A stretch of 64,000 bases of DNA from Candidatus Marinacidobacterales bacterium (GCA_965219415.1 CBDCNP010000001.1:128001-192000), one strand, 5' to 3'. Positions 169 through 18,619 are shown, counted from the stretch's first letter. Notes: a model not told the origin generated them from the letters alone. Program-made: numbers and translations.

Positions 169-1323
169 TTAAGTGTCCTTCGGGAAGCTCCCGACGGGAA
201 AGGCCTTGACGTCACCGTTGGCGTGCGAGAACTCGAACTGGTTCTGGTAGAACTTCGGGTTCTTGCGCGTCCGCAGCTCCATCTCTATGACCTCGCCCGG
301 CATGAACTGCTTTTGGTGCGTTCGCGAACCACTTCTCACCGCGTTGCCCTGCTCGTCGTACCAGTGCTCCGTCACCATAAACCGCGTTATCCAGTCCTTC
401 GACACATTGCGCACCCGGATGGTGGTGATCACCTCGTCGCCTTCGACCTTTGTCTCGGGGGTGAGAATCTGAACTCTAGCGAGGCCGCGTAACTCTCGAG
501 GCCGGTACGTTGGCTCGTTCCGGGCAGGCTGCTTGCTCTCGGCGGCGCCTTGGTTGTCGGCAACCTTCGAGGGCCCGGTGGCGTCTGCCGATTCTGAGGA
601 TGGTTCACTCGCCTTGGCAGGCGCGGATGCCGCGGCCCGAGCCTCCGGGGTTGTCCCCTCGATGTCGAGGATGACCCAACGCGCGGGCTCGATGCGATCG
701 CTCTCCGGCTCAGAGAGTTTGTACTTTCGAAGCACAACCCTATAGGGCAGCTCGTCGCCATCCCGGGGTTTGAGGCGGAGCAGCATTTCCGTCACCGCGA
801 CGTCTCCGTCTAGGTTCTCGACGTTCACCTGGCGCATCACCGACTTGGTGGCGAGTCCGGTTTCACTACGTACGGCCCGTTTGAGCTCTTGAAATGTGCC
901 TTCCTTCTCTCTGCGCTCCTCAACCAGCCTCAACCACTCCTCTTGAATCTCACCCATCTTTCCACGGAACTTGTAATCTGAACCCTCTCGCAGCTTCGAG
1001 ATGATCCGTTCGAGAGCATCCGGCTGGTCGCTGGCATACTTTTGGCCTGCCTCCACCGCGGCGTCTCGTTCCTTCGTGGCGGCCTCAAACCGGTCGAGGA
1101 GCTCCGGCAACGCGAAAGGCTCCGTTGATCGGGAGCTAACCTCGACCACCTTCCACGACTCTACCTCCACGGGAGGGCCGACGGCCGACATGGAAGCAAG
1201 CGTTGTAGGGTCGTTGGTCCGGGCGGCACGGAAGAATTGGTCTATGGTCGATTGCTCCGGACTGCCGCAGGCCCAGAGGCACGCAAGGGTCGCACTCGCG
1301 ATCCATTTCTTGAGTTTCGTCAT
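169..1323 (-). CDS. Putative lipoprotein with coiled-coil insert and C-terminal Ig-like (FxLYD-like) domain
   Basis: Likely start MTKLKK after an AGGAGG RBS. Lipobox LWAC-G. C-terminal 'EHWYDEQG' beta-rich domain. Confidence 0.7.
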   Translation of the reverse strand: MTKLKKWIASATLACLWACGSPEQSTIDQFFRAARTNDPTTLASMSAVGPPVEVESWKVVEVSSRSTEPFALPELLDRFEAATKERDAAVEAGQKYASDQPDALERIISKLREGSDYKFRGKMGEIQEEWLRLVEERREKEGTFQELKRAVRSETGLATKSVMRQVNVENLDGDVAVTEMLLRLKPRDGDELPYRVVLRKYKLSEPESDRIEPARWVILDIEGTTPEARAAASAPAKASEPSSESADATGPSKVADNQGAAESKQPARNEPTYRPRELRGLARVQILTPETKVEGDEVITTIRVRNVSKDWITRFMVTEHWYDEQGNAVRSGSRTHQKQFMPGEVIEMELRTRKNPKFYQNQFEFSHANGDVKAFPVGSFPKDT

Positions 1324-1533
1324 CTGATCCTCCTTTCGGAAACAGACAAACTCCGCACTTCGTGCGGGCACATTATCGTCGATGAAATCCGGCGGGTGCT
1401 GTGGGGCTCCTGGGGAGAACTCGCAGGAAGCTCCCGAGAAACAGGCGCAGCCCGAGCCAGCCTTTCCACCTGCTGACGACGTTCGGTGGCCATGGGAAAG
1501 CCTCCGACTGGTTTATGCTGGCCCAGTCAGAGG

Positions 1534-1637
1534 GAAAATAGCCCCGCACGGGCTGAAAAGTCAAAGGGGTCTCTGTCTTCAGACTGTCCGTGTTTTGTCC
1601 GTGAACATGGAACTAAACCCGACAAAGCTGAACAAAC
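1534..1637 (-). repeat. Dispersed ~105-bp repeat, copy 1, containing TTGACT-N18-TATTTT promoter motif
   Basis: Aligns by eye with 12700-12804 and, in its promoter part, with 18423-18456. Contains the tandem TGTCCGTG-TT-TTGTCCGTG motif. Confidence 0.8.
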
Positions 1638-1707
1638 AAAAAGCGGGAAAAGGCCTTAATTTGTTGGGATTCTTTGTTGGTGTTTGTTCCCTTTGGCAGC
1701 TTGGAAT

Positions 1708-1797
1708 GGGCCCATAACCCAAAGGTCGCAGGTTCCCGCCTTCGCTCCAACGTAGCAACATTCGGAGCTACGGCGGGCAGGCAAATCCTGCCCCCGC
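1708..1797 (+). pseudogene. tRNA-fMet 3' half (att-like), interrupted in the T-loop by a palindromic REP-like insert
   Basis: GGGCCCATAACCCAAAGGTCGCAGGTTC [47-nt insert 1736-1782] AAATCCTGCCCCCGC matches the anticodon(CAT)-to-acceptor part of initiator tRNA. The 5' half is absent. Confidence 0.8.
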
Positions 1798-2160
1798 CCT
1801 ACAAACGCCTGGAACCTGTTTTTGCATCCTTCTTGTTTCTTGGAAAGGCACGTTGGGCTACCCACCCAAAGAAATATCTCAGCAAGAGACTCGCGTGGAT
1901 GTGTCCCCCCTCGGCGTCGCTGCCCGGATCTGCCCCGAAACGGACCAAGAACGCCCTGCTCAGAAGGCCGTGAAACCGAGCCAGCCACCCCGAGCGATGA
2001 GCAGCAAGCCCGTTACTCTTCCGACCGCGACGCCAGCGAGCATCACCTTCTCCATGAGAACGAACAACGCCAGGCCAACTATCCAAATTAGGTTCATTGC
2101 GCCCCCATAGAACAGGAGTGAAGTGACCCCGCTTTCGTGGACAGGTTAAGAGTTAGGGAT

Positions 2161-3012
2161 TCAAGCGTCGCGATAGTACCTCCTTTCGAATTGGATAGGC
2201 GAGCAATAGTCGATGGCGGAGTGTCGTCGTCGCGGGTTGTACCAGCCTTCGATGAAATCGAAGGTCGCCATGCGCGCCTCAGCGTGGTAGCGAAACGACC
2301 GGCGCTCGATCAGCTCGCACTCGAGCGTCGCGAAGAAGCTCTCGCACATCGCATTGTCGTAACAGTCCCCGACTGAACCCATCGACGGTCGCACCCCGGC
2401 CTCCCGGCATCGCTGGCCGAACGCTAGTGACGTGTACTGCGTGCCCTGGTCCGAGTGATGGATGACGTCGCCGGGCTTGCGTTGGAACAGCGCCATGTCG
2501 AGGGCGCTCAAGACGAGCGACGTCCGCAGGTGGGTAGCCATTGCCCATCCGACGATGCGTCGGCTGAAGGCGTCCAGCACGACGGCGAGGAACAAGAAGC
2601 CCGACCACGTGGGCACGTAGGTGATATCGGCGACCCACAGGCGGTCGGGCCGGTCCACCTCGAAATTCCTGTCGACGAGATCGGGGGCGGGACGGGCGTC
2701 GTCACAGCGAATCGTAGTGTGCGCCCTCTTGCGCCGGTGAACACCTTGAATGCCAGCCTCGCGCATTAGCCGCGCTACACGCTTGCGTGAGACGTGGAGC
2801 TCGTGTGTCTCTCGTAGCTCGTGGAGAATCCTCGGCGCGCCGTACGTGCTCCGCGACGCGGTGTGAATCGCCCGGATCTTCTCAAGCAACTCCGCATCCG
2901 ACACCGCGCGGGCCGACGGGGCACGCTCAAGCCACGCATAGTAGCCGCTGGCGGAGACGTCCAGCAGTCGGCACATCGTGGCAACCGGTAGTGAATCCTG
3001 GTTCGCCCTCAC
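2161..3012 (-). CDS. IS3-family transposase OrfB (integrase core)
   Basis: WVADITY, HHSDQGTQYTS and YDNAMCESFFATLE motifs. Confidence 0.95.
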   Translation of the reverse strand: MRANQDSLPVATMCRLLDVSASGYYAWLERAPSARAVSDAELLEKIRAIHTASRSTYGAPRILHELRETHELHVSRKRVARLMREAGIQGVHRRKRAHTTIRCDDARPAPDLVDRNFEVDRPDRLWVADITYVPTWSGFLFLAVVLDAFSRRIVGWAMATHLRTSLVLSALDMALFQRKPGDVIHHSDQGTQYTSLAFGQRCREAGVRPSMGSVGDCYDNAMCESFFATLECELIERRSFRYHAEARMATFDFIEGWYNPRRRHSAIDYCSPIQFERRYYRDA

Positions 3013-3323
3013 GAATCGGAAGGCTTCGGTGGTACCGACTCGGTCTCCCGAGCGAACCAGGCCGCGGCTTTTGAGAGGATCTCCCGCTCCAACCGTAGTT
3101 GACGGTTCTCCCGTCGCAGGCGGCGGAGCTCCGCACGCTCCTCACTCGTCAGACCGTCCTGCCTGCGACCCTCGTCGAGATCCGCCTGGTTCACCCAGTT
3201 CCGGATCGTCTGGCCCGAGGGCTCAAACTCTCGCGCCAGCTCTTCGGAGCCGCGGCCAGCTCGCACCAGCTCTACCATTTGGCGCCGGAATTCGGCCGCG
3301 TATCTGTTTCCCTGCTTTGACAT
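3009..3323 (-). CDS. IS3-family transposase OrfA (HTH)
   Basis: Y..EFR...V.L HTH followed by EL.RLRREN..L..EREIL.KAAAWFA. Confidence 0.95.
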   Translation of the reverse strand: MSKQGNRYAAEFRRQMVELVRAGRGSEELAREFEPSGQTIRNWVNQADLDEGRRQDGLTSEERAELRRLRRENRQLRLEREILSKAAAWFARETESVPPKPSDS

Positions 3324-3579
3324 CGTGGACTCCTGTCTCCCAAAGGATTAGGTGTCCACGAAAGCGGGTCAAGTCCAGGAGGGCCATTAGAAACCAACAA
3401 CACCCGAGACAGAACACACCATGCTCGATGCCCATCCTGAATGCCCCCCCGACCCCGGGCCACCAATGCGTAGACAGAAAGCTAATCGGGGACCTGCAAT
3501 GGCGCAGGCATACTGTTTTTAGTGGGGTTAGTTGCCAGACACCGGCGGCTAGCAACAAACCCGAACCCAAGAGGTTGCT

Positions 3580-5014
3580 GAAAGTGTGCCAATCTTAGTT
3601 GGGAATCGAAACGGCTCCAAACCCCGTGGTTTGATGGCGTTGGACAAAACAAAATCAAGCCGCGAAGAAAGGAGCCGAGATGGGAAGTCTGCTACGTTCG
3701 GTCAAGAAACGCAAGAAGTCGCGTCGTTTGGGTGAGGTCGAGATGGTGAGGCACGAGGATTACGGGGAACTCGTGCTGGACGCCAAGGTAGAGATGATCC
3801 GTTGGTTGGTCCCCCTTGGTCTAATGCACGTTCACGAGTTGCTCGACGACGAAGTGAAGGCGTTGGCGGGAGAGCGATACTCTCGCAAGGACGAGCTGGA
3901 GCGCGGTCGCCGTCCCGGAAGCAACCCGGGCACGGTAGGGCTTGGCGGCCAGCGGGTACCGATCCGTGTGCCACGGGTTCGGAGCATCGAGGGAGGAGAG
4001 ATTCCGCTTCGCTGCTACGAGGCGGTGAGCCACGGCGGTGAGGTGAATGATCTTCTGCTGAAACGAGTTCTCTACGGAATCTCTTGTCGCAACTACGAGG
4101 CGGCAGCGGAAGCGATTCCGGGCGCCATCGGACTGTCGAGCTCAACGGTGTCCCGAGGGTTCGTGCAAGCGAGCGCTGCGAAGCTGCGGGAGATGCAGGA
4201 ACGGGATCTGACCGGCGAGGATGTGGTGGCGCTGTTTCTGGATGGGAAGACATTCGCCGAGGCAACGATGGTCGTGGCTCTGGGCATCACGCTTTGCGGG
4301 GAAAAACGCTTCTTGGGCTTCGTGGAGACGGACACGGAGAACGCGCAGGTGTTGACGCCGTTCCTGCGTTCACTGCTCGAGCGGGGACTCGATATCTCCC
4401 AGGGTCTGCTGGTGATCATCGACGGCGGCAAGGGTCTCCAAGCGGCAGTCAAGAAGGCATTCCGTAAGCGGGCCCTGATACAACGCTGCCAGTGGCACAA
4501 ACGTGAAAACGTAGTGAGCTACCTGTCCAAGGGCGAGCAGGCGTCATGGCGCAAGCGGCTCCAGTGGGCCTACAACAGGCCGGAGTACGAAGAGGCCCTC
4601 ACTGCGCTCGAGCAACTCCACGGTGAGTTAGAAGAGCGGAACCAATCCGCAGCTGGCAGCCTGGAGGAAGGCCTCGAGGAGACGCTGACGTTGCATCGAC
4701 TCGGCGTGCACGCGGTGCTGGGCCGTTCGTTCAAGACGACGAACTGCCTTGAGTCCGTCAATGCTCTCGTCGAGGAACGCTGCGCGAAGGTCGACCACTG
4801 GAAGAACTCGAGCCAACGCCAGCGCTGGTTGGCAACGGCGCTCGTAGACATCGAACCGCGCTTGAGGAAGGTGGTGGGCTACCGCCATCTTCCCAAGCTT
4901 CGCGAAGCTCTCAAGCGGGAACTGAAGATCGAGGCGGAGACATCAACCGTATCGAAGAAGAAGGTCGCTTAAACGTGAGCCGTGGAGAGTTTCAACTAAG
5001 AATGGGCTTGACTC
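3580..5014 (+). mobile_element. IS256-family insertion sequence
   Basis: 8-bp TSD AGGTTGCT at 3572-3579 and 5015-5022. Imperfect IRs sharing TCTTAGTTG. Single transposase ORF. Confidence 0.9.
3680..4972 (+). CDS. IS256-family (Mutator-like) transposase
   Basis: FLDG, IIDGGKGL, QRCQWHK and TTNCLES motifs. Confidence 0.92.
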   Translation: MGSLLRSVKKRKKSRRLGEVEMVRHEDYGELVLDAKVEMIRWLVPLGLMHVHELLDDEVKALAGERYSRKDELERGRRPGSNPGTVGLGGQRVPIRVPRVRSIEGGEIPLRCYEAVSHGGEVNDLLLKRVLYGISCRNYEAAAEAIPGAIGLSSSTVSRGFVQASAAKLREMQERDLTGEDVVALFLDGKTFAEATMVVALGITLCGEKRFLGFVETDTENAQVLTPFLRSLLERGLDISQGLLVIIDGGKGLQAAVKKAFRKRALIQRCQWHKRENVVSYLSKGEQASWRKRLQWAYNRPEYEEALTALEQLHGELEERNQSAAGSLEEGLEETLTLHRLGVHAVLGRSFKTTNCLESVNALVEERCAKVDHWKNSSQRQRWLATALVDIEPRLRKVVGYRHLPKLREALKRELKIEAETSTVSKKKVA

Positions 5015-5491
5015 AGGTTGCTTGTCGACATCATCATGGTGGATAGAAGTTCTTCGCGCTCGAGCCCCCATTGCGCAACTACCGCAACCAGACTGAACGC
5101 TCCCCACATAGCCAAATAGCCGGCGATGAACGCTGTCGTGGTCGAATGAAGTCGGTGTGGACCGGAGGTTGGCCCCGCGTTTTCACCACGCTCCAGTCCC
5201 TTTCGGGTTACCGCAGCGTGCAAAAGCACCATAGGCGCTGCGCTCGGCAGCATCATTGCAATCATCATGAGCCACCACATCGAAAACATGACAAGCGCAT
5301 AGCCGGGCGTCCACGTGACCGGTGACATCAACGTGTCTTCGGTGCGCGAGCGCCCGATCGACGCCGTCATCGTCTCGTGGCCGGGCATGCTGGCCATGCT
5401 CGGTATCGATGGGTCCATACTCATTTGGGACGGAATAAGTACGGCCATCTCGTGGGGATACATGCCGGTGCCCGCCCCGGCTAAGAGATAC

Positions 5492-6859
5492 GGATGTGTC
5501 CCGAGGTCCGTGGAAAAAGAACGGTGCCCTCCACTCCGTCATCAGAGTATCATATCAGGCGGTAACCTCCGCGTGTTCGAGAACCTCGCTCAGACGTTGG
5601 TAGCCGTCGATGCGTCGTAGTTGAATCTGGCCAGAGGCGATAAGCCCAAACAGCAAAGCGACCGCAGACTCCTCGCTGGAGAACGACGCTTGGGTTTTCG
5701 TCCGGCGTCGAAACTCGCGGTTGAGATTCTCCAGAGCTTTGGTCGTTCGAATCGATTTCCACATGGCACGAGGGAATTCGTAGAAGGTCAGCCCAGCTGA
5801 TTACCGGCCTCCTCTAGGCTTCGGACGACGGCCGGCGCGAGAGGCGTCCACTTGGCGACGAGCTCGTCATAGGCTTTGCGAGCATCGAACCCGTTCTTGG
5901 CGTAGACGATCCGGTTGTAGTCACGCCGGAGCTCACGGCGTGCGTGCGCCGGGCAATGTTGGAGCAAGTTGGCGCGCTTGTGCTCGGTACATCGCTGCAA
6001 CCGGCACCCCGGCCACTTCTCCAGCGCTTTCGTCAGCCCCTTGTGGCCGTCGCTGATCACTAGCTTGGGAGCCCGGAGTCCTCGAGCCTGGAGTCCCTCC
6101 AGCACGGAGCCCCAATGCGTCGAGGCTTCGCTCACCGCCAGACGCAATGACAACAGACGTTTGTGCCCGTCTGGCGCGACCCCGAGCGCGGCCAGTACGG
6201 GTACGCTGATCACACGTTTCGCCATCCGCACTTTCAGGTGGAAGCCGTCCAGGTAAACGATCGCGTAGACCTCCTCGCTGAGAGCACGGTTCTGCCATTC
6301 CTCGAAGCGCTCCTTCAGCCGGCTAACCACGCGAGACACCGCGCTCTTCGATAGGTGCTCCTCACCGAGCAGTGGTTTCAGCGCTTTGCGGACCCGGCGG
6401 CTATTCGCGCCCGACAAGTACGTCCCCAAGAGCGCCTCGTCGACCTCACGAGTCCGGCGCGCGTACCGGGGCAACAGCTCGCTCCTGAACTCTATCGTTT
6501 CTCCCGTTTCCTCGTCTCGCACGCGGGCTCGTGGCACCCGGAGCTCGCGAGTTCCCACCGACGTCGTCACGCGACGGGTTTCGGCTCCGTTGCGATATCC
6601 ACGGCGGTCTTCCGCACGCTCGTAGCTACAACACCCCAGCGCTTGGTCGACTTCTTCCTCGAGCACAACCTCGATCGCCTCCAGTACCCGCATACGCAGC
6701 CGAAGTTGGACGAACTCCCGGTACTCGCTTACAGACTCCTTCAATATGGTGGTAGGCTTCTTCATGGCGTAATCCTCCTCCTCGCCTTTCCAGGCGCGGT
6801 TTCGTTTTGCTTAACCGGAGGTTACGCCATTCTTATTTCCACGGAAGCGGGACGGATCC
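5492..6859 (-). mobile_element. IS256-family insertion sequence; transposase 5555-6765 frameshifted near 5790
   Basis: 8-bp TSD AGAGATAC at 5484-5491 and 6860-6867. IRs GGATGTGTCCCG...TCCGTGGAAA / GGATCCGTCCCG...TCCGTGGAAA. YLDG, ISDGHKGL, QRC..HK and LENLNREFRRR motifs. Confidence 0.92.
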
Positions 6860-6971
6860 AGAGATACAGCCAACATGTTGTAATGACAGTCACGAGAACG
6901 CACGTCACTACTTGCCGGTCTCGACGAAGGACCGCCTCAAGCACGTTAGAAGAATTCACGGGAGCGCGGAC

Positions 6972-7640
6972 TCATGCGCCAAGCCATGCTGTGAGCCTTG
7001 ATCTTTCGCGGACCAAGCCATCCTGATTGAAGTGGTGAACACAATAATGCGCCCATGAATCTTCGAACGCCATCTCCATATCACCCGTCACCGAGGTCGT
7101 GCCTAGTCCGATCTCTGCGTAGGTAAACTCGAAACTGCCACTAGGGCGTGCCAACGCAATGTGGAACGGTTGACCATTAAAGTCGTTGATTATCGGTCTG
7201 CCGCTGCTTCTCATGATGCCCGGTATATCAACCCTTGCGGTTCTGAGTTCCAAGTTCGCTTCGAGACCAATCGGCAGGAACAATGTCTCGCAAAATTCCG
7301 AGCATGTGGAGGCGAATACGGAGAAAAGATTGCTCAATGGTTCGCATGCGCCGCCCGAGATAATTGTTTCAAGTGCCGCCCGTTGAGCTTCATCCGCGCG
7401 TTCTTCGATAACGATCTGGCGTTTTCCGTTTCCCTCCATGATTTCCCCAGGCCACTTATACAGCGCCGCCCAATTCAGCCCGGCGAGCGGCGTATCGTTG
7501 AAATGGCCTTCAACGATGTTGCCGACGAAGGCCGACTGACAATAGCCGTGGGTGCTCGGCAAGTTGAACTGGCAACCGCAATTCACAGCGCAATTGCAGT
7601 TATCATAAGTTTCGCTCTTGAATAGCCATTGATCAGCCAT
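6972..7640 (-). CDS. DUF1326 domain protein (Cys-rich N-terminus)
   Basis: NCNCAVNCGC...PSTHGYC, EGHF.DTPL.GL, WPG...EG and DEAQRAAL motifs. Paired with DUF2182 as usual. Confidence 0.85.
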   Translation of the reverse strand: MADQWLFKSETYDNCNCAVNCGCQFNLPSTHGYCQSAFVGNIVEGHFNDTPLAGLNWAALYKWPGEIMEGNGKRQIVIEERADEAQRAALETIISGGACEPLSNLFSVFASTCSEFCETLFLPIGLEANLELRTARVDIPGIMRSSGRPIINDFNGQPFHIALARPSGSFEFTYAEIGLGTTSVTGDMEMAFEDSWAHYCVHHFNQDGLVRERSRLTAWLGA

Positions 7641-8081
7641 GTCGCCGAGCCTCGCCTGACCGATGTCCGCAGTCTGAATTGTGTGCAAAGTGATTACTCC
7701 TCAGAAAAGTCAAAGGGGGCGACGACCACATGGATTCAACTTGCCACACTGTGCGGGAATTGTGCGGGAATGGGATGCCTCTCGTGCCAATCGGTGGCCT
7801 GTTCGTAGGCATGGCCAACGCGCAGAGCATCGCTTCGCTCAGTGGCACCAACACAGGCTTGGCCTTCGCCGGAGTGGGTAGATCGACTTTCTGGCGTCAT
7901 CGAGCGTGGGTGCCAACATCAACCTAGCCAGACGCCGGTCCGGACCTAGTTGAGGTGCCGGCGGCCGTAATGAGGAGCAAGCTTCACGTGCGTAGAGGCG
8001 CCGCTCGTCCACCTCGGCAATGTGTGCGACCAACTCCGGCTCGACGCGTCGTGATTCTTGCACCAGCCCCTATAGGCGGCG

Positions 8082-9453
8082 GAGCTCTTGTCAATAGGTG
8101 TGTAAAAAAGTTCAGGCAGCAGCAACCTTCGACGACTCCGTTACCCTGTCTCCATCTTCAAATCGAACGCCCAGGTGAACCTCTCGCATCAGCTCCGGTG
8201 CGTTGAGCCGGCGAAAATTCTTCTCCGCAACCAGAAGCAGTTTGAAGATTGTCGCAGTGGCGGACTCGACTTTCTTGAACCTTTTGGCCGCATCCGTTCT
8301 CAATCTCAGTGCAGCGAACGGTGATTCCACGACGTTGCTCGTGCGAAGGTGTTGCCAGTGAGGCTTGGGAAAGGAATAGAAGCTGACCATCCGCTCCCAG
8401 TCCTCGTCGAGCACGTGCGCGGCCCCCGGAAGACCCTTGCGCAAGCACCAATCCTGGAACTTGGCCTTCTTCGTCTCGCACTCCTGCAGGCTGGTGGGGT
8501 AGGGGATCGCCGTCAACAGCGGCTTGGCCTGCGCCTGGTCCCTTTTCGGAATCCGGTCCAGTACGTTGAGGATTCGGTGGTTCCAGCACCGCTGCTCCTC
8601 AGCTTCTGGAAATACGTTTCGGGTCGCGGCCCAGATGCCGAGATGACCGTCACCGATCACCAAACGGGGACATCTCAGACCGCGCTTCTTCAGTCTCCGT
8701 AGCAGCGACGACCATGACGCTTCGGATTCTCGATGCCCGGCCTCCAGCGTCAGGACGATTTTCGTCCCGTCGGACAGGCCACCAACCGCAACTAGCACCG
8801 CCGCCTTGTCCTTCTCAAGGCCGGCCTTCACGTACACGCCATCTACCCACAGGGACACGAGCTCGAGTTCGTCCAGTGGGCGAGCTAGCCACTGCTCGTA
8901 CTCTCCCTGCCATTTCTGTTTCAGCCGCGACACCGTGCTGGGAGAAAGTGGAGCGTCCTCCCCTAGAAGCCCGCGGAGCGCCAAATCGAAATCTCCGTGA
9001 GCTAGTCCATGCAGGTACAGCTCCGGAATCAACTCGCTCACCGTTTCGCTCCGACGCTTGAACAGCGGAAGCACTCGACTTTCGAACCTCTCCTCCACGT
9101 CCCGTACTCTCGGCCGGCGAACCGTCACCGTGCCCACGCTCATCGTCAGCTTCCGAGGCTTACCGTATCCATTTCGATAGCCCGCCGTTGTGTCCACGGG
9201 CTTCCGTCTCTCCGATTTCTCACGCCCGAGAAGCTCCGTGACTTCGGCTACCATCAGCTCCTGCACCCAATCCTGGATCTCGAGCCTCGCCCACTTCTCC
9301 AGCGACTCCCAAGCCACCCTTGACGAGCTCCGTCGTCCTGTGGTCTTTTCCTTCATGGCGGTGTCTCCTTCCGTTGGCCCCTTCACGCCGTGTTTCGTGA
9401 CGCGGAAGGTTACTCCGCCTTTACTTTATTTCCACACCTTCTGAGGGTAGCTC
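8082..9453 (-). mobile_element. IS256-family insertion sequence
   Basis: 8-bp TSD AGGCGGCG at 8074-8081 and 9454-9461. IRs GAGCTC...AGGTGTGTAAA / GAGCTA...AGGTGTGGAAA. Confidence 0.92.
8112..9356 (-). CDS. IS256-family transposase
   Basis: GYRNGY, WVDGVY, IGDGHLG, QRCWNH and RTSNVVES motifs. AAGGAG RBS before MKEK. Confidence 0.92.
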   Translation of the reverse strand: MKEKTTGRRSSSRVAWESLEKWARLEIQDWVQELMVAEVTELLGREKSERRKPVDTTAGYRNGYGKPRKLTMSVGTVTVRRPRVRDVEERFESRVLPLFKRRSETVSELIPELYLHGLAHGDFDLALRGLLGEDAPLSPSTVSRLKQKWQGEYEQWLARPLDELELVSLWVDGVYVKAGLEKDKAAVLVAVGGLSDGTKIVLTLEAGHRESEASWSSLLRRLKKRGLRCPRLVIGDGHLGIWAATRNVFPEAEEQRCWNHRILNVLDRIPKRDQAQAKPLLTAIPYPTSLQECETKKAKFQDWCLRKGLPGAAHVLDEDWERMVSFYSFPKPHWQHLRTSNVVESPFAALRLRTDAAKRFKKVESATATIFKLLLVAEKNFRRLNAPELMREVHLGVRFEDGDRVTESSKVAAA

Positions 9454-9551
9454 AGGCGGCGAAGGAGCTCATCATCTGAAATAGTCGAAATCGATTTCAA
9501 TATTCGGATGGAGTTGCCTCTAAGGATCTGACTCCAGCACCACCGCTCTGC

Positions 9552-9767
9552 TCAGCGCAGTTTCTGAAAGTCATCGAGCGACATGCCCAGCTGCCGCAGA
9601 ATCTTCTGGAATAGGGGTGGGCCGATTTCTTTGCCACCGTGGATTGGAATCGTTACAGCGCGGCCATCCGGATGATTCCACCGTTCGTGGCCACCCGTCT
9701 GGCGAGACTTGGTGAATCCTAGCTTGCTCGCTACCTTCCGGAATTCCCGGGCGGTAGCGCTAGGCAT
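9552..9767 (-). CDS. hicA: HicA-family toxin
   Basis: 71 aa. GF...RQTGGH..W.HPDGR.VTIP.H...EIG...IL motif. Confidence 0.9.
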   Translation of the reverse strand: MPSATAREFRKVASKLGFTKSRQTGGHERWNHPDGRAVTIPIHGGKEIGPPLFQKILRQLGMSLDDFQKLR

Positions 9768-9972
9768 TTACGATTTCGGTAGTATCGTCTGGGAGGGGTT
9801 GTCCCTTATCCCGGTACTCCTCTGCGATCAACTCGAACACGTGTGCCAACTCCGACAAGGCCTCTGCTCGTGTCGGCATGAGCGCATAGCAGCCAGGAAT
9901 TGCAGGAACCTCCGCCACCCAGGAGCCGTCTTCCTGCCTGTAGAGGACCGTCTTATAGTCATCGAGAGTCAT
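9760..9972 (-). CDS. hicB: Short HicB-family antitoxin (no DNA-binding domain)
   Basis: EDGSWVAEVPAIPGC...T..EAL motif. Overlaps the hicA start (hicBA order). Confidence 0.88.
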   Translation of the reverse strand: MTLDDYKTVLYRQEDGSWVAEVPAIPGCYALMPTRAEALSELAHVFELIAEEYRDKGQPLPDDTTEIVNA

Positions 9973-10032
9973 CTGTCTCTCAGCATAGCATCGCTTTCGG
10001 GCCCTCTCAAACAAGGCGCCCTTATGGCCCCC

Positions 10033-10077
10033 CCATAACCAAAAGGTCCCTGGGTTCAAATCCTGCCCCCGCCATCA
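10033..10077 (+). pseudogene. Second tRNA-fMet 3' fragment (att-like)
   Basis: CCATAACCAAAAGGTCCCTGGGTTCAAATCCTGCCCCCGCCATCA. No 5' half upstream. Confidence 0.8.
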
Positions 10078-10202
10078 ACTTCTTTCCCAAACAAAACAAA
10101 GAGTTGCGCGGGTTTGCTCGGAGGGATTTTTTCTACGGCTTGCTGCGCTTTTGTGCAGTCGCGATTCCGGGCCGAGCCTGCTCGTCGTCCCGCGGGTTCT
10201 CT

Positions 10203-12678
10203 CTAGCTTTCGCTCTCCGTGCCTTCGTCCTTCGGGAACAGCGTCTGAAGCATCAGGTGCGTTCGGTTTCTCCAGCTCGACCAGCCAGACCCGTCGTGAA
10301 ACTCACCGCCGACGTAGGCATAGCCCTTTTGCTCTAGCACGTCCGCAAAAGCCAGGCCGTCACCTCTGGTGTCCCATCCTTCTTTCTCGCTCTTGGCGTC
10401 ATACTTGATCCAGTCGAGATAAATGGTGAGCGGTTGCCTCCCTGGACTAGACATCAGGGCGGAGTTCTGCTCCCGATAGCCCCTCTCCCAAACGATCGAT
10501 TGCAGTCCGAGCTTGCCGAACATCCCGGGATGCTTCACCGCGGTATAGAAACTCATAAAAGCGGTATGTTCGGTACCGACTAGCGCCCTCGAGCCGGCGC
10601 CGTCCGATACCGGGTAGCGCCCCTCGACCAGTGGAACGATCTCTTCGACCAGCATTCTCTCGTAGAGATCCTTCTGTGCGCCGGAGTAGGTTTGATAAAA
10701 AGTTCGAAAGTTGTAGCCACCGTCGTCCCGCTCGCCTGGAATCGGAATGAAAACGACGAGGATCGGCTCGATGCTATGGCCGCTCAAGTTGTCGAGGGTG
10801 TTCGTCAATCTGCCTAACTGGATCGCCTGGTTGCCGTTGTGTACGTAGGCCACGGGGTATTCCCTGTCGGGCTGGTAGCCGGGTGGCAAGTAGATCTTGA
10901 GGGGCAGGCCCATGTCCAGGTACCGGCTCTCGAGCGCAATCTCCTCGAGCCGGCCGCGCGATTCGGCAGGGGGCTCATCGAGATGGATCGGCGCGACCCA
11001 TTCGGGCATGGCCACATAGGACATCGTGTCTTCGTAAAAGACGAGGGTTTCCATAGGATTCCGCGGATCTTGCAAACGAGTATCGAAATCCTGAATGAAG
11101 CCGTAGTCGACGCGGGCGTCTGACTCCAAGCGCACCGAGTAGTAGAAGAAATCGGTTTCCTCGACCCGGTTCATCGGGCGATCCGTTCGCCCGCCGAACA
11201 GATCGCTAAAGAGTGCCATGTCCTCGCCCAATCCCCGGTAAACGAAGTGCACCATGTCGGTCCCTTCGACAATCGGGAACTGCCGTTGCGATGCCAGGAA
11301 CTCGTCGAGCAAAATCGTCTTTTGGTCGGAGGCCTCGACGCTGGCGATGAAACGCCCGAACTCCGATTCGGAGATGGCTCCTTGTTGCTCCCGGTCGAGG
11401 GTCATCCGTTCGTCCACCTCGACGACGTCGACGCGGGCCCATTCCCCCATGCTGCGAAGATAAAGGCTCTCATTGGCGAAGCTGGCCGGCGTCCACACTA
11501 GGTCGTCGAAAAGGTGAACGCGGGCAATCTCGTTGTATCCTTCGGGGGATGCCGGAGCCATGCTGAGGTCACCGTCCTTGGTGACGATCACCAGATGGCC
11601 ATCGAGCAGAATCGGGAAGCCGTCGCCCGGCGGCCGTGATTTCCAGACGAGCTCGCCCTCCTCTTCGCTGACCGCGCTCAGAATACGGCTGTTGTAGCCG
11701 TAGAAATAGCCCTCGTGATAGACAGGAACAACGTAGGTGTTCTTGATGTAGCGACTCTGCCAGACTTCCCTAGCGCCGGGCTGGTCTCCACCGTTCAACT
11801 CGAAGAGCTTCGAGCTTCCGTGGTGATTGTTGATGAAGACGTGGTCGCCGGAGCCTTTGACGATGTTGGTGCTCCGGCTGCCGATGTCCCTCGTGTCGCC
11901 GCCATGCTCCACCGTCCAGAGCAACTCGCCTGAGGCGGGATCGAGCCCGAGCATCTTTTCATTTCCGATACCCAGCAAGAGCGGCCGCCCTTCGACTGTC
12001 GTCAGTAACGGCGACTGGTAGTCGATCGAATCATGGCCCGCCGTCCAGCGCACATTACCGCTTGCGGCCTCGAACGCCGTGACCGCCCTACCCTTCGGTC
12101 CTCCAGTTTCAAGAATGACGGTGTCGCCGAACGGGATCGGCGCGGTCGCGAAGCCATAGAAGGGAACCACGGACTCCCGATCTTCGGGGCAGGTCTAAAG
12201 ACCACAGCTCCTGCCCGGTCGCAAAATCGAAAGAGAAGAATTGTCCCGAGGTATCCAGCACAAAGACGCGCCCGTCGGCGATCATAGGTGTGGAGATAGG
12301 GCCGTCCTGCGAGCCCCAGTGGCCGGGATAACGCGGCCCGAGTCTGGATCGCCACAGCTCTTCTCCGCTCTCGGCGTCGAAGGCGGCAACATAATCGGAG
12401 GTGGCGTCGGCAAACATGGTTACGGCGACACCATCCACCACTGAGATCCCGGAATAGCCAGAGCCGAGCGGCCTCTTCCAAACGACGTTCAACCGATAGT
12501 TCCCGCCGGGCTGCAGTTTCTTCGTTCGAGTGGCGGTCAAATCCATATTGACGCCCCGCCAGACGGGCCAGTCCCTTTCAGTATGTTGGGAGGAGGCTAG
12601 TGGCGAGAGCGCAAAGGCCAAAGCGAGCGAAGCCAGAATGGTTGTCCTTCGTCGAAGATAGCAAACGCGCCGTTTCAT
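10203..12678 (-). CDS. Exported PQQ-like beta-propeller fused to a Fes-like alpha/beta-hydrolase domain (frameshift near 12170)
   Basis: Signal peptide, WP.WRG and GSGYSG...GP.STP repeats. C-terminal IYLPPGY...YPV.Y esterase-like region. Two overlapping ORFs 12109-12678 and 10203-12170. Confidence 0.8.
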
Positions 12679-12699
12679 CAGTACCTCCTTGAGGAGTGT

Positions 12700-12804
12700 G
12701 AAAATAGCTCCGCACAGGTTGAAGAGTCAAAGGGGTCGTCTGTCCCCGCACCATCCGTGTTTTGTCCGCGAACATGGAAAAAAACCCGACAACACAGACC
12801 AAAC
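12700..12804 (-). promoter_or_regulatory. Dispersed repeat copy 2; TTGACT-N18-TATTTT just upstream of the AGGAGG RBS and ATG at 12678
   Basis: Similar along its full length to 1534-1637. The -10 box lies ~22 nt from the start codon. Confidence 0.75.
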
Positions 12805-12844
12805 CGGCTAAGGCTGAGGAGGAGCGCGGGATACTTTATCTCGT

Positions 12845-14236
12845 CTATCCCTCTTCTGCGATGCAGTAGAGGTATTGCTCCCCGCGCAAGAACAGCTCGC
12901 CGCTGGTGATTGCGGCCGAGGCGCTGAAGCTGTCGTCGAGAAGGTTGAGTGCGAGGGCCTTGGGGTTGTCGTCATGACTGAGCACTAGTGTCGCGCCATC
13001 CAAGTCGGTGATGTAAACGCGGCCGGCGGCGCCCACCGGCGAAGCATATACGTTGCCGATGCCGTCGAGCCGCAATGGGCCTGGGCGGTCTTCGCCGGTC
13101 TTTACACGCAGGCGTGTAAGGATTCCTTGGTAGTGATAAAGGAAGTACAACGCGTCTCCGTAGAGCAATGGCGACGGCACGTATGGAGTGCCTCTACTTC
13201 GCGTCCACACGACCCGGTTGGTTCCGGTGATGTCGCCCCTGGCGTCGTCGAGACGTATGGCCAGCAAGTTCCTCGTGTCGTAACTGCTGCCGGCATAGAC
13301 CATGCCGGCCGCGGCCACCGGCGAGGCAACGATGTTGGCCGACAGCCCGGCGCATTCCCAGATAACCCTACCGGTGTCAAGCTCGTAGCCACGCACACGC
13401 TTCGTGCCGCTGATGATGACCTGGTGCTTCCCGCCGTGCTCGACCACAACCGGCGTCGCCCACGACGTGGGCTCGTCACGCTCAACCTTCCAACGCTGTT
13501 TGCCGGTTCGCTTGTCAAACGCAACCACAAACGACTGCCCTTCGTGATCCCAGTTGATGATCAGAGTATCGCCGTGAAGCACGGGCGAGCCGCCCTCGCC
13601 ATGCCCGTGCTTGGTCTGCATGTCGCCCAGGTCAGTCTCCCATAGCAACTCACCGTCCAAATCGAGGCTGTAAAGGCCGTAGGAGCCGAAGAAGGCAAAC
13701 AAGTGTTCACCGTCAACGACCGGAGAGTTCGACGCAAAGCTTCCCGTGTAGTGAATGCCTTCATTGGGTATGAGCTCGCGAACCGTCCTTTGCCAAACGA
13801 TCTTGCCGTCGAGGCGGTTGACGGCAAGCACGGCGAATGATTGGCGCCGCACCACCGGTAGACCGTCGTGCGCACCGGGGCGGCGGCCAGCCGGCGGGGG
13901 GACTTGCCTTCCTGAAGGAATGGCAGCGGTCAGGAAAATGCGATCGCCCCAGACGACCGGCGTCGAATGCCCTTTGCCAGGAAGCGCGAGCTTCCAACGG
14001 ATGTTCTTGTCCTCGCTCCACTCCAACGGCGGGTCGGCGCGCGGCGCGACGCCGGTACCCAGGGGCCCGCGCCACTGCGGCCAGTAGTGATCGGGGTCGG
14101 CACCGCTCTGACTGGGTGCGGCCCTTTTTTGTTGGGCTATTTCCTGCGGGCTCTCCGGCCGCTCTCTCGAACCGAAGACGCCCGCGATGCTCATCGCCGC
14201 AAGCGTCCCGCCCACGGACAGGAGAAGCCATCTCAT
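12845..14236 (-). CDS. PQQ-binding-like beta-propeller repeat protein (BamB-like)
   Basis: WPQWRGP, PG.GHSTPVVWGDRIF, SWATPV, PYVPSP and YASPV motifs. Confidence 0.88.
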   Translation of the reverse strand: MRWLLLSVGGTLAAMSIAGVFGSRERPESPQEIAQQKRAAPSQSGADPDHYWPQWRGPLGTGVAPRADPPLEWSEDKNIRWKLALPGKGHSTPVVWGDRIFLTAAIPSGRQVPPPAGRRPGAHDGLPVVRRQSFAVLAVNRLDGKIVWQRTVRELIPNEGIHYTGSFASNSPVVDGEHLFAFFGSYGLYSLDLDGELLWETDLGDMQTKHGHGEGGSPVLHGDTLIINWDHEGQSFVVAFDKRTGKQRWKVERDEPTSWATPVVVEHGGKHQVIISGTKRVRGYELDTGRVIWECAGLSANIVASPVAAAGMVYAGSSYDTRNLLAIRLDDARGDITGTNRVVWTRSRGTPYVPSPLLYGDALYFLYHYQGILTRLRVKTGEDRPGPLRLDGIGNVYASPVGAAGRVYITDLDGATLVLSHDDNPKALALNLLDDSFSASAAITSGELFLRGEQYLYCIAEEG

Positions 14237-15176
14237 TGCACACCGAGAAACCGCGCCGGATTGGTCTTGCTTTGCCGCGTGCGAACTACGAGACCTTCGT
14301 GCCCTCGGATCCGAACCGCAATGGTGCGCCACGTACCATCGAGAACCTCGTTCTTTGGTGTGTAGGCAACGCGATAGCTCGTGTGGAGCTCCTGCCCGAT
14401 GGCGGCGAAGCTTCGGTGGAGGTGGTCGACGTTGACGGGGTAGAAGGCGCGACCGCCGCTCTCACTCGCAAGTTGGGTGAGAAAGTTCCGGTTGACGCCT
14501 CGCCCTTCGCCGATGAAACCGACGGTGTAGATCGTCACCTCGGACATCTTCCCCGCTTCGACCACGTCACTCGCAGACCTCTTGCTACCGCCGTCCATAG
14601 GTCTCGAATCACTGCCATCCGTAAACACCAGGAGTGCTTTTCGTCCGTCGATCCTCGCAAGCCTATCGAGAGAATGCAAAATTGCGTCGTACAGGGCTGT
14701 CGATCCTCGAGCGTGGAGAGAGCGAATCGCCTTCAAGAGAGGATCATGGAAAGCTGTGAAATGCGTACTTTTGAGGATCGTATCGCTGAAGATCACGACC
14801 GCTGCCTCGTCCCGCGAGCTCATCTCGCGAACCAAGTTCGACGAAGCCTTCTTGATCGCACCTTCGCTGCCCGTAATACTCGTCGAGGCATCGAGAAGCA
14901 AGACAAGGGTAACCGGAGTTAATTCGTCTGAGGAGAAGAGGCTCACCTCCTGGCGCACACCGTCCTCCAAGATCTCGAAATCGTCGGCGGTCAACCCAGG
15001 AAGAAAGAGCTGACTCGGGCCGGTCACGACCACCTCAAGTAAACCGAACTGACGTTGGTCTTGAACCGGGGCGTGGGCCTACTTTGGCCTTGGAAGTTCT
15101 GCGGCGGCAGAAACGCGAGAGCGTGCGCAGACGCCGAGACAATGAGAAGAGCTATCGCGTTAACGGTACTGGTCAT
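14233..15176 (-). CDS. VWA domain protein (acidobacterial VWFA-related), frameshifted near 15036
   Basis: GLTADDF.ILEDG..Q, LLLDASTS (MIDAS), GSTALYDA, VFTDG.D and SGGRAF motifs. Signal-like N-terminus in another frame from ATG 15176. Confidence 0.85.
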
Positions 15177-15458
15177 GGCGCTCGCCTACCATTTTCACCC
15201 GGCCATCATGGCCTGCAATGAGGCCGCGGCAAAGGAGAAGGTGTTGGCTGACCTAGGCCAGGACGGGCTCATCCGTGTAATCCCAGGTTCGAAGCGTCCC
15301 GGGCTCGAGCCGGATCACTTCCAGGTCGACGCCCTTGTACGCATATCCTCCATGGAAAGCGCCAGTGTACTAGATCCGGCGCCGACACCGACAACAGAAG
15401 AGGCGGGTTGCACGGTGCAAGTGCGTCGTGCTAGATACCGCTAACAGAGAGGTAAGTA

Positions 15459-16918
15459 TGAAAGAGAAACGGAGAGTCCACGTGGGGGTCTTATACCTGT
15501 TTCTGCTGGTCGGCCTTCTTGCTCAGTTTCAAACCACAGCACAGGCTCAGGAATGGGAAGCTGAATCTTCAGTCGATGAAGAGATAGATATGAAGGAATG
15601 GAATAATCGGATTCGCCGAGACAAGTTCGATCTCCTTCTGCCACAAATCATGAGGGAGCGCGATATCGACATGTGGATCCATGTGATGAGACTAGCCATT
15701 CCTGATTCTTTTGGTGCAGAAGAATTGGGCGGCACCTCCGGCTTTTTCGTCTTTACCGACCGTGGCGGTGACAGGATCGAACGCGCGATTCTCGGACGTC
15801 GCTGGGGAGATACGCAGCGTGAACGGGGAGAGCGGGAGACCTTGGTTGAAGAAAGTGGGGCCTACGACATCATTGGCGAGCCCGTCCGTGTGCAGGAACC
15901 GGTGGGAGGTCCGATGACCGAGTATGACCATCGATTCGAGGGCCTGAGAGAATTCGTAGAAGCACGTGACCCCCAGCGCATTGCGATAAATTTCAGGCAT
16001 GATCTGGGACCGTGGGAGACCTACACCGACTTTGGGGGCGCGAAAGACGGTTTGTCGCATACAGACTACGTCCTATTGACCGAGGAGCTCGGTGACAAAT
16101 ATGCGGACAGGCTGGTTTCGTCTGAGTATCTGATGATGGACTACATTATTAGAAAGGTCCCGAGCGAAATTGAGCTACTAAGGAAGATGCGTAAGCACAG
16201 AGTTGAAAGGGTCAAGAAAGCCTTTGCTGAAGTCGTGCCGGGGGTTACTAAGAGTCGCGAGGCCAGAATAACTGTCTTTCGCCGGATGCGCCCAGGACAG
16301 TCACAAAGAGGAAGGAGCAGAGGCTGGGAAGGCAGTGTGGTCCAGGGAGGCGACATCCTTGCCGCACCAGGCGTGGGAATGTACGCCTACGTGCTCCGTG
16401 AGGGAGAGACCGAACCGCCTCCAGACATCCAAAGGCTCTGGGCAGAGTATCTGAAGATCGACGAGATTCTGGCAGATACTATCAGGGCGGGGCTTACCGC
16501 TCGTGAGATCATTCAAAACTACACGCGGAAATTCGAGGAGGAGGGGATTATTCTACGGGACAACCAATTGCATATGATTCAGCCAAAGAACGATTTCTCT
16601 GCCTACTCCAAAGGATTTGATCCTGAAAAAACACACCTTAGTGTCGACGCTCATGGCATGATGAAAGGAGCGCGAGAAAGGGACGACGAGAATTATCTTG
16701 GTCCCAGGATCGGCTCTCTTGGTCCGGATTGGACGAAAGACATACCACTCCCACCCAATCACCACTTTGTTTTGGAGTATTTTTTCTATATGCCGTCGTC
16801 TTCCAGCGAAGGCGAAGACCAATATCTACTCTGGTGGGATCATGAGTCGGTGATTGCCACCGAAAGTGGAGTCGAGTATTTTTTTGCACCGCAAAAGGAG
16901 CTTTATCTGGTTCACTAA
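15459..16918 (+). CDS. Exported M24 (Xaa-Pro peptidase-like) family protein
   Basis: KFD..LP..MR...IDMWIH and FTDRGGDRIERA motifs. Clear paralog of 16932-18310. Confidence 0.75.
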
Positions 16919-16931
16919 TGGTTCGCAAAGA

Positions 16932-18310
16932 TTAGCGAATCAACAGGATTCTTTGGTCGTGCGGGTACAGAAGCTCGACTCCGTTTGCGGTGACGATCGC
17001 GTTGTCCTCGAAGCCGAGCCGCAGTCGGACCCCGCCGAACGACGGCAGCGCGGTGTGAGTGAAGTACTCGAAGGCGAATAGGTTATTGGGCTGGACGGTG
17101 AGGTGGGCGCGTCCCGGCCGGAACGGGGCGATTCCGGGCCCAACCGCGACGTCACCACTTCCGGTGTTGCCGAGGGTGTGCAAATCCATCGACACACCGG
17201 TGACGTTGGGTTCATCGAACTCGGCGATCATTTGCCGGTCGATCGACCCGATGTCGGTGAACGGTGTGTAGGCGAAGCCCGCCGCTTCCAACGCGCCCGC
17301 CATCGCCTCGAGCGATTCCGCGGCGGTGTCTCCGGCGCGGACGCTGCGCCGCATGACCTCGCCGGCGCGCAGGCCCTCGCTCCAAGCGTGCTAGATATCC
17401 GCCGGAACTGAAGTCTCCCCCTCGCGCAGGATATAAGCGGTGCGCTTCAAGTCGGTGGCAAAGTTCAGGTATTTCACGCCCAAGTCGAAGTAGATGAGAT
17501 CACCACGCTGGAACGCGTATTGGTCCGACCGATACTCGGCCGGTTCGGCCACCGCCGAGTGGATCACCGACGGCTTGCTGGCTGAGCCGCCGGGTTGATT
17601 GTCGAAGGAGTAGTCGAGGCTCTGCTCCAGCAGCTGGTCCTTCGCCCACCAACCGACGTCCTCTCTGGTGGTAGCTCCCGGCGTGATCACTTCGCCCGAC
17701 AAGGCGCGCTCAAGAATCCGGCGAGTCATCTCGCCGGCGTCCGCGAATGCAACAATTTCACTCTGAACACGCCGGACACGGAAGTCGGTGATGACCTTCT
17801 CGCTCGACACGAGGCGGGAGGCGTAACGCTGGCCGAGCCGGTCGACGAGCAGCTCATGGCCAGAGTAGGAGAGACCGTCAGCGGCGGGTAGCCACGCCGA
17901 AGTGTTCACGGCGATCACCTCCGGGTCGCGCTCCTGCACGAACCGACGTAGATCTGTGCTGGCGCCGAAGAAATCGTAGGGGTCGCCGTCGCTGGCGCGA
18001 ATTCCCTTGTCGTGTCCGCCGAGCACGGCGCGCTCGATCCTATCGCCACCCCGATCGGTGAAGATGAAATAGGAGGTGGTGCCACGCAGGTCGAGTGGTG
18101 TGCCCAAGTCGAGCGCCAGAGGGTCCGGGTTGCCATCGCGGATGACATGTACCCACATGTCGACGCCGTTGTCGCGCATGGCGCCCGGCAAAACGAGATC
18201 GAACTTTTCGCGCTGGATCAGCTCGAGCAGCTCGGCTCGAGCACGGGCCTCCTGGGCCCTGGCGTCGACTCCCACCAGAGCGGCGGTGATAGAGGCGAGT
18301 GCGAGGATTG
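16932..18310 (-). CDS. Exported M24 (Xaa-Pro peptidase-like) family protein, frameshift near 17385, 5' end unclear
   Basis: GDLIYFDLG...TDLKR.AY.LREGE, H..G, AFE and GFED metal-ligand motifs. Confidence 0.75.
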
Positions 18311-18395
18311 AGCCCCTCTCCCAAAGCGAGAGGGAATAAAGGAAAAGAAGCCATCAGTCCACCCTCACCCTACCCTCTCCCAGAGGGAAAGGGAT
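18311..18395. repeat. REP-like palindromes (CCCTCACCCTACCCTCTCCC...GGG type), two copies
   Basis: CCCCTCTCCCAAAGCGAGAGGG and CCCTCACCCTACCCTCTCCCAGAGGGAAAGGG hairpins. Confidence 0.6.
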
Positions 18396-18422
18396 AAAAG
18401 AAGGAAGCCAAAGTCATTCGGT

Positions 18423-18456
18423 GAAAATAGCCTTGCACTGGTTGACAAGTCAAAGA
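18423..18456 (-). promoter_or_regulatory. Dispersed repeat copy 3 (promoter part only)
   Basis: TTGACT-TGTCAACCAGTGCAAGGC-TATTTT. Spacer similar to copies 1 and 2. Confidence 0.65.
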
Positions 18457-18619
18457 GGAGAACGCGTCGCAAGTCCTCGAGCACGCCGCGAGCGCTCCCC
18501 TTTCTAACTCGGATATGCTATCTTGCGCTCCCGGAGGATTGAAGAACGCAGCCAGCGCCTGCGGCCCGTGCGAGGCGCGACCCTCACCCATCGAACGACA
18601 GCTCGAAATCCCGTTTGAT

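Follow-up and report, generated by a model that had tools for sequence, protein, structure and literature searches.

A probable fossil stack of integrase-less island modules at the initiator tRNA-fMet gene of an uncultured Marinacidobacterales bacterium

Attachment (att) sites of the lambda attP kind carry arm-type sites, tandem direct repeats that flank the core on either side at a set distance from the crossover, about 100-130 nt, in arms whose sequence is otherwise not conserved. Integrons are made up of ordered gene modules separated by copies of a recombination site, and the order of the modules varies between relatives. In an account of ICESt1-related elements and of IMEs (integrative and mobilizable elements), decayed elements that keep their att sites, the cis-mobilizable elements (CIMEs), are described as accreting (PMC5704250). 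Prochlorococcus tycheposon islands are portrayed as the outcome of one integration after another, older elements being displaced outward and partial tRNAs left behind (bioRxiv 10.1101/2020.12.28.424599), and near-identical promoters have been reported to be reused before unrelated genes, within and between related genomes (PMC3575422). In this work we analyze a stretch of 64,000 nt (the window) from a Candidatus Marinacidobacterales bacterium (GCA_965219415.1 CBDCNP010000001.1:128001-192000), the left part of which holds fragments of a tRNA-fMet gene, copies of a short promoter-like block, cargo genes and insertion sequences (IS). Our results indicate that this region is probably the outer part of a fossil stack of integrase-less island modules at the initiator tRNA-fMet gene.

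The locus resembles CIME accretion, as set out in the ICESt1 account, in that successive site-specific integrations have stacked integrase-less relics keeping att sites at a target gene's 3' end, forming composites open to complex rearrangement. It differs in belonging to an uncultured lineage, in having an initiator tRNA as its target and in the decay of its att copies: CIMEs have lost their genes for integration and transfer and kept attL and attR, and here the integrase is absent and the att copies are mutated or interrupted, those of a congener being near-perfect. The modules showed no genes for conjugation or mobilisation, and movement in cis by a functional neighbouring element is a candidate property of theirs. 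With the tycheposon islands, as the preprint portrays them, the locus shares its place next to a tRNA gene, integrations at one and the same site, and the scatter of partial tRNAs and fragmented integrases; it differs in having neither a replication module nor the hallmark genes, in its lineage and integrases, and in the recurrent family promoter at the ends of its modules. It is an instructive case of a known process, involving no new class of recombination system, and provides a worked example of how tRNA-gene islands grow by accretion and decay to integrase-less modules in an uncultured lineage with large genomes.

The window corresponds to C2:128001-192000 in a genome of 8.05 Mb on three contigs (C1, C2 and C3); positions given below without a contig are those of the window. 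Comparisons were made across 31 genomes, this one (G000) and its 30 nearest, which include a congener (G001) and one unpublished genome (G007) that contributes only zero or weak rows to the counts. ARAGORN predicted 49 tRNA genes in the genome and none in the window. The intact tRNA-fMet gene (anticodon CAT; C2:116579-116655) sits 11.4 kb to the left of the window, the side on which a first-pass annotation of the stretch had advised looking for it, and shows a C1-C72 mismatch and an anticodon stem closed by three G-C pairs, which are marks of initiator tRNAs. Searches of the window and of the 20 kb to its left against Rfam at gathering thresholds returned the tRNA gene only, so neither the repeat nor the hairpin inserts described below belong to a described RNA family.

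Both of the tRNA-fMet 3' halves that the first-pass annotation had recognized in the same orientation are present on the + strand (f2 and f3; Table 1). Fragment f2 agrees with the tRNA in two parts, 1707-1734 with positions 29-57 (28/29 identical) and, past a 47-nt insert, 1782-1798 with positions 57-73 (17/17); in f3, 10053-10081 agrees with positions 53-81 (28/29), and an extended alignment of 54 nt is 89% identical. A third fragment on the contig, at C2:121116 between the intact gene and the window, covers positions 33-51 (19/19) and has two hairpin inserts, and a further one lies on another contig (C3:1191719). All C2 fragments (C2:121116, 129707 and 138030) are on the + strand, in the orientation of the tRNA gene, and the layout is that of a tRNA island, one end being the intact target tRNA and the opposite end a direct repeat of its 3' part. 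The T arm is interrupted by inserts in two of the three C2 fragments and in the C3 fragment, f3 being the C2 fragment that is left.

The inserts are copies of a small hairpin repeat with conserved ends (CCGCCTTCGC ... GCTACGGCGG) and a variable stem. Copies at 1735-1781, C2:121135-121240, C3:1191745 and, in G001, L038:2142-2183 show it inserted into the T arm, at nearly the same spot, in four or five of the tRNA-fMet fragments; the functional gene is without it. About a dozen more copies occur in the genome, and the repeat has no Rfam match.

The footprint extends to the relatives. Of the 30 nearest genomes, G001 (three, 98-100% identical), G005, G006 and G028 (two) have additional 3' pieces of tRNA-fMet, about 50 nt long; closer inspection of G001 added two more fragments and one relic, and the relatives with further fragments carry one to five each. 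Alignment of the junctions shows at least six unrelated left flanks meeting the tRNA at positions 29-33 (in G000, G001, G005 and G006), and to the right of the junction identity runs to the tRNA 3' end plus 5-9 nt. Independent insertions thereby share a fixed junction in the anticodon loop, as expected of tRNA islands. Endpoints of random duplications would not fall together like this, and the shared junctions are, on the evidence of these alignments, the footprint of repeated site-specific integration at tRNA-fMet. The several left junctions and the fragment arrays of relatives thus uphold the first-pass proposal that modules were stacked here by site-specific recombination. In G005 an island of 11.5 kb separates the tRNA from the fragment; its PF00589 integrase and the fragment are 138 nt apart, and it also holds a TIR-domain gene and a kinase/PD40 gene.

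Next to f2 the first-pass annotation had described a repeat of about 105 bp recurring at 12700 and, partly, at 18423, and alignments and pattern search agree with it. The copy at 1529-1637 is 86% identical over 43 nt and 77% identical over 75 nt to 12695-12804, and 72% identical over 43 nt to the partial copy at 18418-18460; a 31-nt pattern of the repeat, allowing up to three mismatches, has two matches in the window and none in 100 shuffles. As judged from sequence comparison, the repeat is a composite of a 41-nt promoter block, 24 nt and the start of a longer arm (arm X), and this composite is present three times in the genome (at 1534, at 12700 and at C1:1106k).

Arm X runs from the promoter block to the tRNA core of f2 and contains the tandem motif noted earlier, a TGTCCGTG pair in the layout TGTCCGTG-N4-TGTCCGTG. 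In its window form, TGTCCGTGTTTTGTCCGTG, the motif was found with up to two mismatches in 7 of the 31 genomes. It starts 126 nt before tRNA position 33 in the window and in two copies in G028, and at nearly the same distance in G020 and in the G001 relic. Six instances of TGTCCGYGTTTTGTCCGTG, from two families, start 124-133 nt before position 33 (this window, two full fragments and one relic in G028, and two relics in G020), and in a seventh, the G001 relic, the motif starts 128 nt before the aligned position. The arm sequence between motif and core is not conserved between the families; arm X is 82% identical to the G001 relic, which has no promoter. The intact tRNA of G026 and of G020 is followed by the motif at a distance of 75 nt, and that of G016, by coordinates, at about the same distance. 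In G026, 3 nt separate the motif from the stop codon of an integrase of 368 aa, which is intact and preceded by a 104-aa excisionase-like gene, and homologues of this integrase stand beside tRNA-fMet in G020 (92%), G018 (53%) and G016 (a remnant).

A second arm motif, consisting of two copies of CTGTGCGGGAA, keeps a spacing of 126-127 nt at C2:120990, in G006 and beside two fragments of G001; in G022 it stands after the tRNA. The arm with this motif is 78-82% identical among G000, G001 and G006, and a nearby stretch of a GGDEF-domain gene is 75% identical between G000 and G006. The distance from promoter to second motif varies (about 20, 35 and 58 nt), whereas that from motif to core is constant. 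Given this fixed core spacing across families, and the intact integrase that abuts a motif in another genus, the TGTCCGTG and TGTGCGGGAA tandems fit the role of arm-type sites and are candidates for integrase binding. The arrangement departs from lambda-like attP in that one spacing is common to two motif variants, the core is the segment of the tRNA from anticodon loop to 3' end, and binding is predicted. For integrases specific to the initiator tRNA, comparison alone thus defines the att core (tRNA positions about 33-82) and two candidates for arm-type sites.

Of the three copies of the repeat in the window, those at 12700 and 18423 stand without a tRNA fragment. The truncated arm X copy of the former is followed by no tRNA fragment, the stop codon of the next gene falling at 12845, and the promoter block of the latter has neither arm motif nor tRNA fragment. 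At a further relic (7704-7771), where half a promoter block precedes the second arm motif, homology ends on both sides.

The leftward TTGACT-N18-TATTTT of the first-pass annotation is present in all three window copies of the block, on the minus strand and with 9 of 12 consensus matches, and constitutes a predicted sigma-70-like promoter; in the cases displayed, a start codon follows about 20-110 nt downstream. A profile of the 41-nt block (nhmmer) detects 15 copies in the genome at about 90% identity, of which five lie in C2:120-147 kb, all pointing leftward. With up to three mismatches, the block occurs 13, 15 and 7 times in three members of the genus, once each in G003, G006 and G024, and not at all in the 25 other genomes, and a reversed control pattern has no match anywhere. 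A kinase N-terminal motif lies within 300 nt downstream in 23 of the 41 copies with flanks, and two more G000 copies precede a kinase gene behind a long leader. Since most copies are away from tRNA fragments and the distance to the arm motif is variable, the block is, on this census, the conserved predicted promoter of a lineage-specific Ser/Thr-kinase/PD40 gene family and not an att arm. The idea of an att arm doubling as a promoter therefore survives in one half: the TGTCCGTG tandem is arm-like in its spacing and in its adjoining integrase, but the promoter is a separate block that belongs to the kinase family.

The repeat is linked to tRNA fragments elsewhere as well. Among 20 tRNA-like fragments outside tRNA genes, four have a block within 400 nt, on the opposite strand and pointing away: tRNA-fMet twice, tRNA-Thr (C1:1923844) and tRNA-Asp (C1:1106175). 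Random placement of 15 blocks in 200,000 trials yielded at least three such pairs in one trial and four in none, the two fMet pairs possibly not being independent. A block stands 26-174 nt to the left of four of five fragments in G001 and of two of three here, and the single block of G006 adjoins its tRNA-fMet fragment. This non-random presence of a kinase promoter at island ends raises the question of whether such promoters help acquired genes to be expressed.

Two minor features of the block may be recorded here. A terminator reading of the spacer hairpin AGCCC...GGGCT (1540-1554) was rejected, as the other copies do not keep the hairpin. A leader between block and start codon is conserved, comprising a pyrimidine tract (GGCTTCCTTCCTTTAT), a CCCTCTCCC/GGGAGAGGG hairpin and then TAGGGTGAGGG; it is found at 18313-18410 (two tandem units), C2:120.85k, C1:1193.3k, C3:4102.8k and C3:2820.7k, and may be a translational control element.

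Matches to the Pfam phage-integrase family (PF00589) occur at 13 places in the genome, 11 on C1 and two on C3, and are absent from the whole of C2; the window has no integrase, as annotated, and the sequence to its left has none either. Pfam searches on 20 open reading frames (ORFs) between the tRNA and the window found no recombinase, the hits being kinase/PD40 genes, several of them broken, and one IS3. An integrase gene inside the element, as tRNA islands have, is found in G005 and in G026/G020 and not here. Queried with the G026 integrase, this genome offers a best match of 33% identity (C1:1170664), close to a tRNA-Phe gene; queried with the G005 integrase, its best matches are C-terminal remnants only. 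Integrase C-terminal remnants also lie downstream of two further promoter blocks on C1.

According to the history that we propose for the fossil stack, successive modules would have integrated into the 3' half of tRNA-fMet through the action of a tyrosine integrase, with the crossover in the anticodon loop. Each integration would have left a copy of tRNA positions from about 29/33 to 82 and, to the left of that copy, the P arm of the element with its tandem arm-type motif about 126 nt from the crossover. Integrase genes would then have been lost, IS3, IS256 and small hairpin repeats would have invaded, and recombination among tRNA fragments and promoter blocks would have reshuffled the modules. 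The block would adjoin the arms in that the outermost gene of several modules, reading inward from the arm, was a kinase gene or a replacement behind the same promoter.

Several observations weigh against this history. The genome is 96% complete with 8% contamination, and present inactivity is deduced solely from the decayed sites and the missing integrase. Three of the G001 fragments match the tRNA at 50/50, 50/50 and 49/50 positions, the neighbouring arm being only about 80% conserved between species, which could point to continued use of the sites in that species or to gene conversion. Single-gene modules bracketed by tRNA halves, of 1.9 kb (G001) and 3.1 kb (G006), may never have had an integrase. 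Finally, with 4 of 15 blocks at three different tRNAs, chance occupation of the end position by a kinase gene may be an insufficient explanation.

Comparison with the congener reveals the same modules in a different order. An intact 887-aa kinase gene (C2:123983-126695) is 88.5% identical to the kinase beside the tRNA in G001, where it is coupled to an arm and fragment found in G000 behind another, IS3-disrupted kinase gene. The lipoprotein block has arm X here and a different arm in G001, in which arm X lies promoter-less beside a sulfatase gene, and the propeller gene at 12852-14271 directly follows a fragment in G001 (f3 there). The right flank of our f3 is orthologous to the flank of the last G001 fragment, and homology ends at the upstream edge of the promoter block in both examinable cases. 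Modules that are shared but permuted in this way imply that recombination at the repeated blocks or fragments, homologous or site-specific, rearranged the stack. That the array grew for the most part by unequal homologous recombination, which amplified and diversified one ancestral kinase island (between the tRNA and one fragment) with no further integrations, is nevertheless unlikely. The recurrence of a unit of arm, fragment and downstream terminator (G000 f1; G001 f1 and f4; G006), the roughly 80% identity of the kinase paralogs, the between-species breaks located exactly at the block edge and a C3 unit of fragment and kinase that has no tRNA gene are all in keeping with it; however, the unrelated left junctions at positions 29-33, at least six in number, cannot stem from one event, two different arm motifs have the same core spacing, and the cargo between fragments is unrelated. 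Unequal recombination probably had a share in the process, but leaves unexplained how the fragments arose.

A rather improbable alternative is that the block, with or without a piece of the arm, is a mobile promoter that spreads itself and lies near att arms by target preference. Putative mobile promoters are in print (PMC3575422), and the block shows the near-identical upstream sequence ahead of non-homologous genes that is expected of them: it precedes kinase, lipoprotein, propeller-esterase, FadL-like porin and FAD oxidase genes, its conservation of about 90% includes the spacer, its edges are sharp, and its upstream and downstream flank types combine as a mosaic. Yet most copies precede one gene family, including the single copies in three other genera; the displaced-start relics retained at several of the non-kinase genes fit gene replacement behind an inherited promoter better; and the flanks of the copies, when read, showed no terminal repeats or target duplications around the block. 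Compared with promoter reuse as that report presents it, the difference is the concentration of copies in one kinase family, with exceptions that resemble gene replacement.

There is also a slim chance that in this genus block and P arm form a dedicated expression slot at the outer end of elements targeting at least three tRNAs (fMet, Thr and Asp), with genes swapped by recombination at the block and att-flanked single-gene modules still movable by a cognate integrase in trans; such a slot would be a promoter-carrying, tRNA-based counterpart of the integron. Like an integron, the locus consists of ordered modules between copies of a recombination site, in an order that differs from that of a relative. 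It has no IntI-type integrase with attI and a common promoter Pc (C2 encodes no tyrosine recombinase, and there are several separate promoters) and no promoterless cassettes ending in attC, its modules having a promoter block of their own and tRNA-derived repeats as bounds. The first-pass proposal of a working integron-like array, in which non-autonomous cassettes with an att arm for a promoter are captured and expressed at tRNA-fMet by an integrase encoded elsewhere, draws on the tRNA-bracketed single-gene modules, on the closeness of block and fragment here and in G001, on the same geometry at tRNA-Thr and tRNA-Asp fragments, and on the differing module order and nearly perfect G001 fragments of the congeners, but is very improbable in a genome that has no integrase close to the tRNA-fMet-specific ones to act in trans, local att copies that are mutated or interrupted, repeat copies standing apart from any tRNA fragment, a kinase-family promoter at many att-free sites and at variable distance from the arm motif, and no shared promoter, attI or attC-like site.

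Within the fossil stack, the modules in the window comprise the genes and insertion sequences listed in Table 1. Between f2 and f3 lie one IS3 copy, three IS256-family copies, the PpoB2-domain gene and the DUF1326 gene. Up to 15.2 kb the minus strand carries every one of the six non-IS genes, as had been said of most of them. The lipoprotein region is 93% identical at the DNA level in G001, where it adjoins a different arm. The coding relic next to it is out of frame with the ORF at 169-1371; its leader and start recur at C1:1886033, where they stand ahead of a different ORF, and G001 has the leader as well. The propeller-esterase gene consists of two overlapping ORFs (10203-12170 and 12109-12678).

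Table 1. Features of the region, in window coordinates
Feature	Position	Strand	Evidence or remark
Predicted lipoprotein, 385 aa, no Pfam family	169..1326	-	Signal peptide with Cys; module ending at f2
Out-of-frame N-terminal coding relic MATERRQQVERL...	1372..1493	-	Between promoter and lipoprotein gene
Promoter block (predicted), copy 1	1531..1571	-	-35 TTGACT 1564-1559, -10 TATTTT 1540-1535; nhmmer E = 9.8e-11
Candidate att arm (arm X), promoter to tRNA core	1572..1706	+	Tandem motif TGTCCGTGTTTTGTCCGTG at 1585-1603
tRNA-fMet 3' fragment f2 (positions 29-73)	1707..1798	+	47-nt hairpin repeat interrupts at 1735-1781
IS3-family element, two ORFs (rve, HTH_21)	2161..3323	-	Pfam rve E = 1.3e-25
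IS256-family (Mutator-type) transposase	3680..4972	+	PF00872 E = 1.2e-36
PpoB2-type copper chaperone domain protein, cargo	4996..5463	-	PF09948 E = 9.7e-19
IS256-family transposase, truncated	5788..6765	-	PF00872 E = 8.6e-69, profile 31-316 of 379
DUF1326 protein, cargo	6972..7688	-	PF07040 E = 5.6e-49
Half promoter block relic (-35 side), then second arm motif	7704..7771	.	Motif CTGTGCGGGAATTGTGCGGGAAT at 7749-7771
IS256-family transposase	8112..9386	-	PF00872 E = 1.8e-60
tRNA-fMet 3' fragment f3 (about positions 33-82 plus 6 nt flank)	10030..10087	+	Outermost recognisable att copy
Secreted PQQ-like beta-propeller + esterase gene	10203..12678	-	Pfam PQQ_2, Esterase; 94% identical to G001
Promoter block (predicted), copy 2	12696..12736	-	nhmmer E = 2.4e-10; consensus scan
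Truncated arm X copy	12737..12804	+	Degenerate motif ATCCGTGTTTTGTCCGCG at 12752-12769
PQQ_2 beta-propeller gene (12845-14332) + VWA-domain gene (14233-15033)	12845..15033	-	Pfam
Promoter block (predicted), copy 3 (18421-18459), with two tandem hairpin leader units (18313-18410) downstream	18313..18459	-	nhmmer E = 6e-10

The 62-nt overlap of the two propeller-esterase ORFs reflects a frameshift or an assembly error, and in G001 the promoter region is 1.7 kb further from the coding homology than here. At 15055-16918 the run of minus-strand genes is broken by two + strand ORFs (129 and 496 aa) with no Pfam family, which may be an unrecognised insertion element.

Some further observations concern other loci. 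A gene for an HNH endonuclease lies directly upstream of a kinase/PD40 gene at four loci, its 3' end overlapping the promoter block (C2:126804-127739, which is L011:18804-19739; L036:1026-2225; L032:1756-2103; and L027:7905-8900). The C2 copy has no Pfam hit and is 85% identical to a 399-aa HNH protein on C3; the HNH and kinase/PD40 genes may form a two-gene module. The kinase domains at L011:15981-18644 and L036:1952-4759 match the PADLOC PD-T4-6 models at E = 1e-89 to 1e-94; membership in that defence system was not counted, as the match does not extend beyond the generic kinase domain. A second decayed island stack stands at tRNA-Thr(CGT) (L031, C1:1922200-1939000), with three fragments of 45-47 nt, an N-terminal integrase remnant beside the tRNA, genes for Shedu SduA, SIR2-like and HicB-like proteins, IS3 and IS256 copies, and a promoter block ahead of a FadL-like porin gene beside the outermost fragment. 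Lastly, 3' fragments of tRNA-Glu (C1:51450-51496) and tRNA-Asp (C1:1106175-1106208) lie on C1 and the matching genes on C3, which points to old rearrangements or to elements that moved with an att copy.

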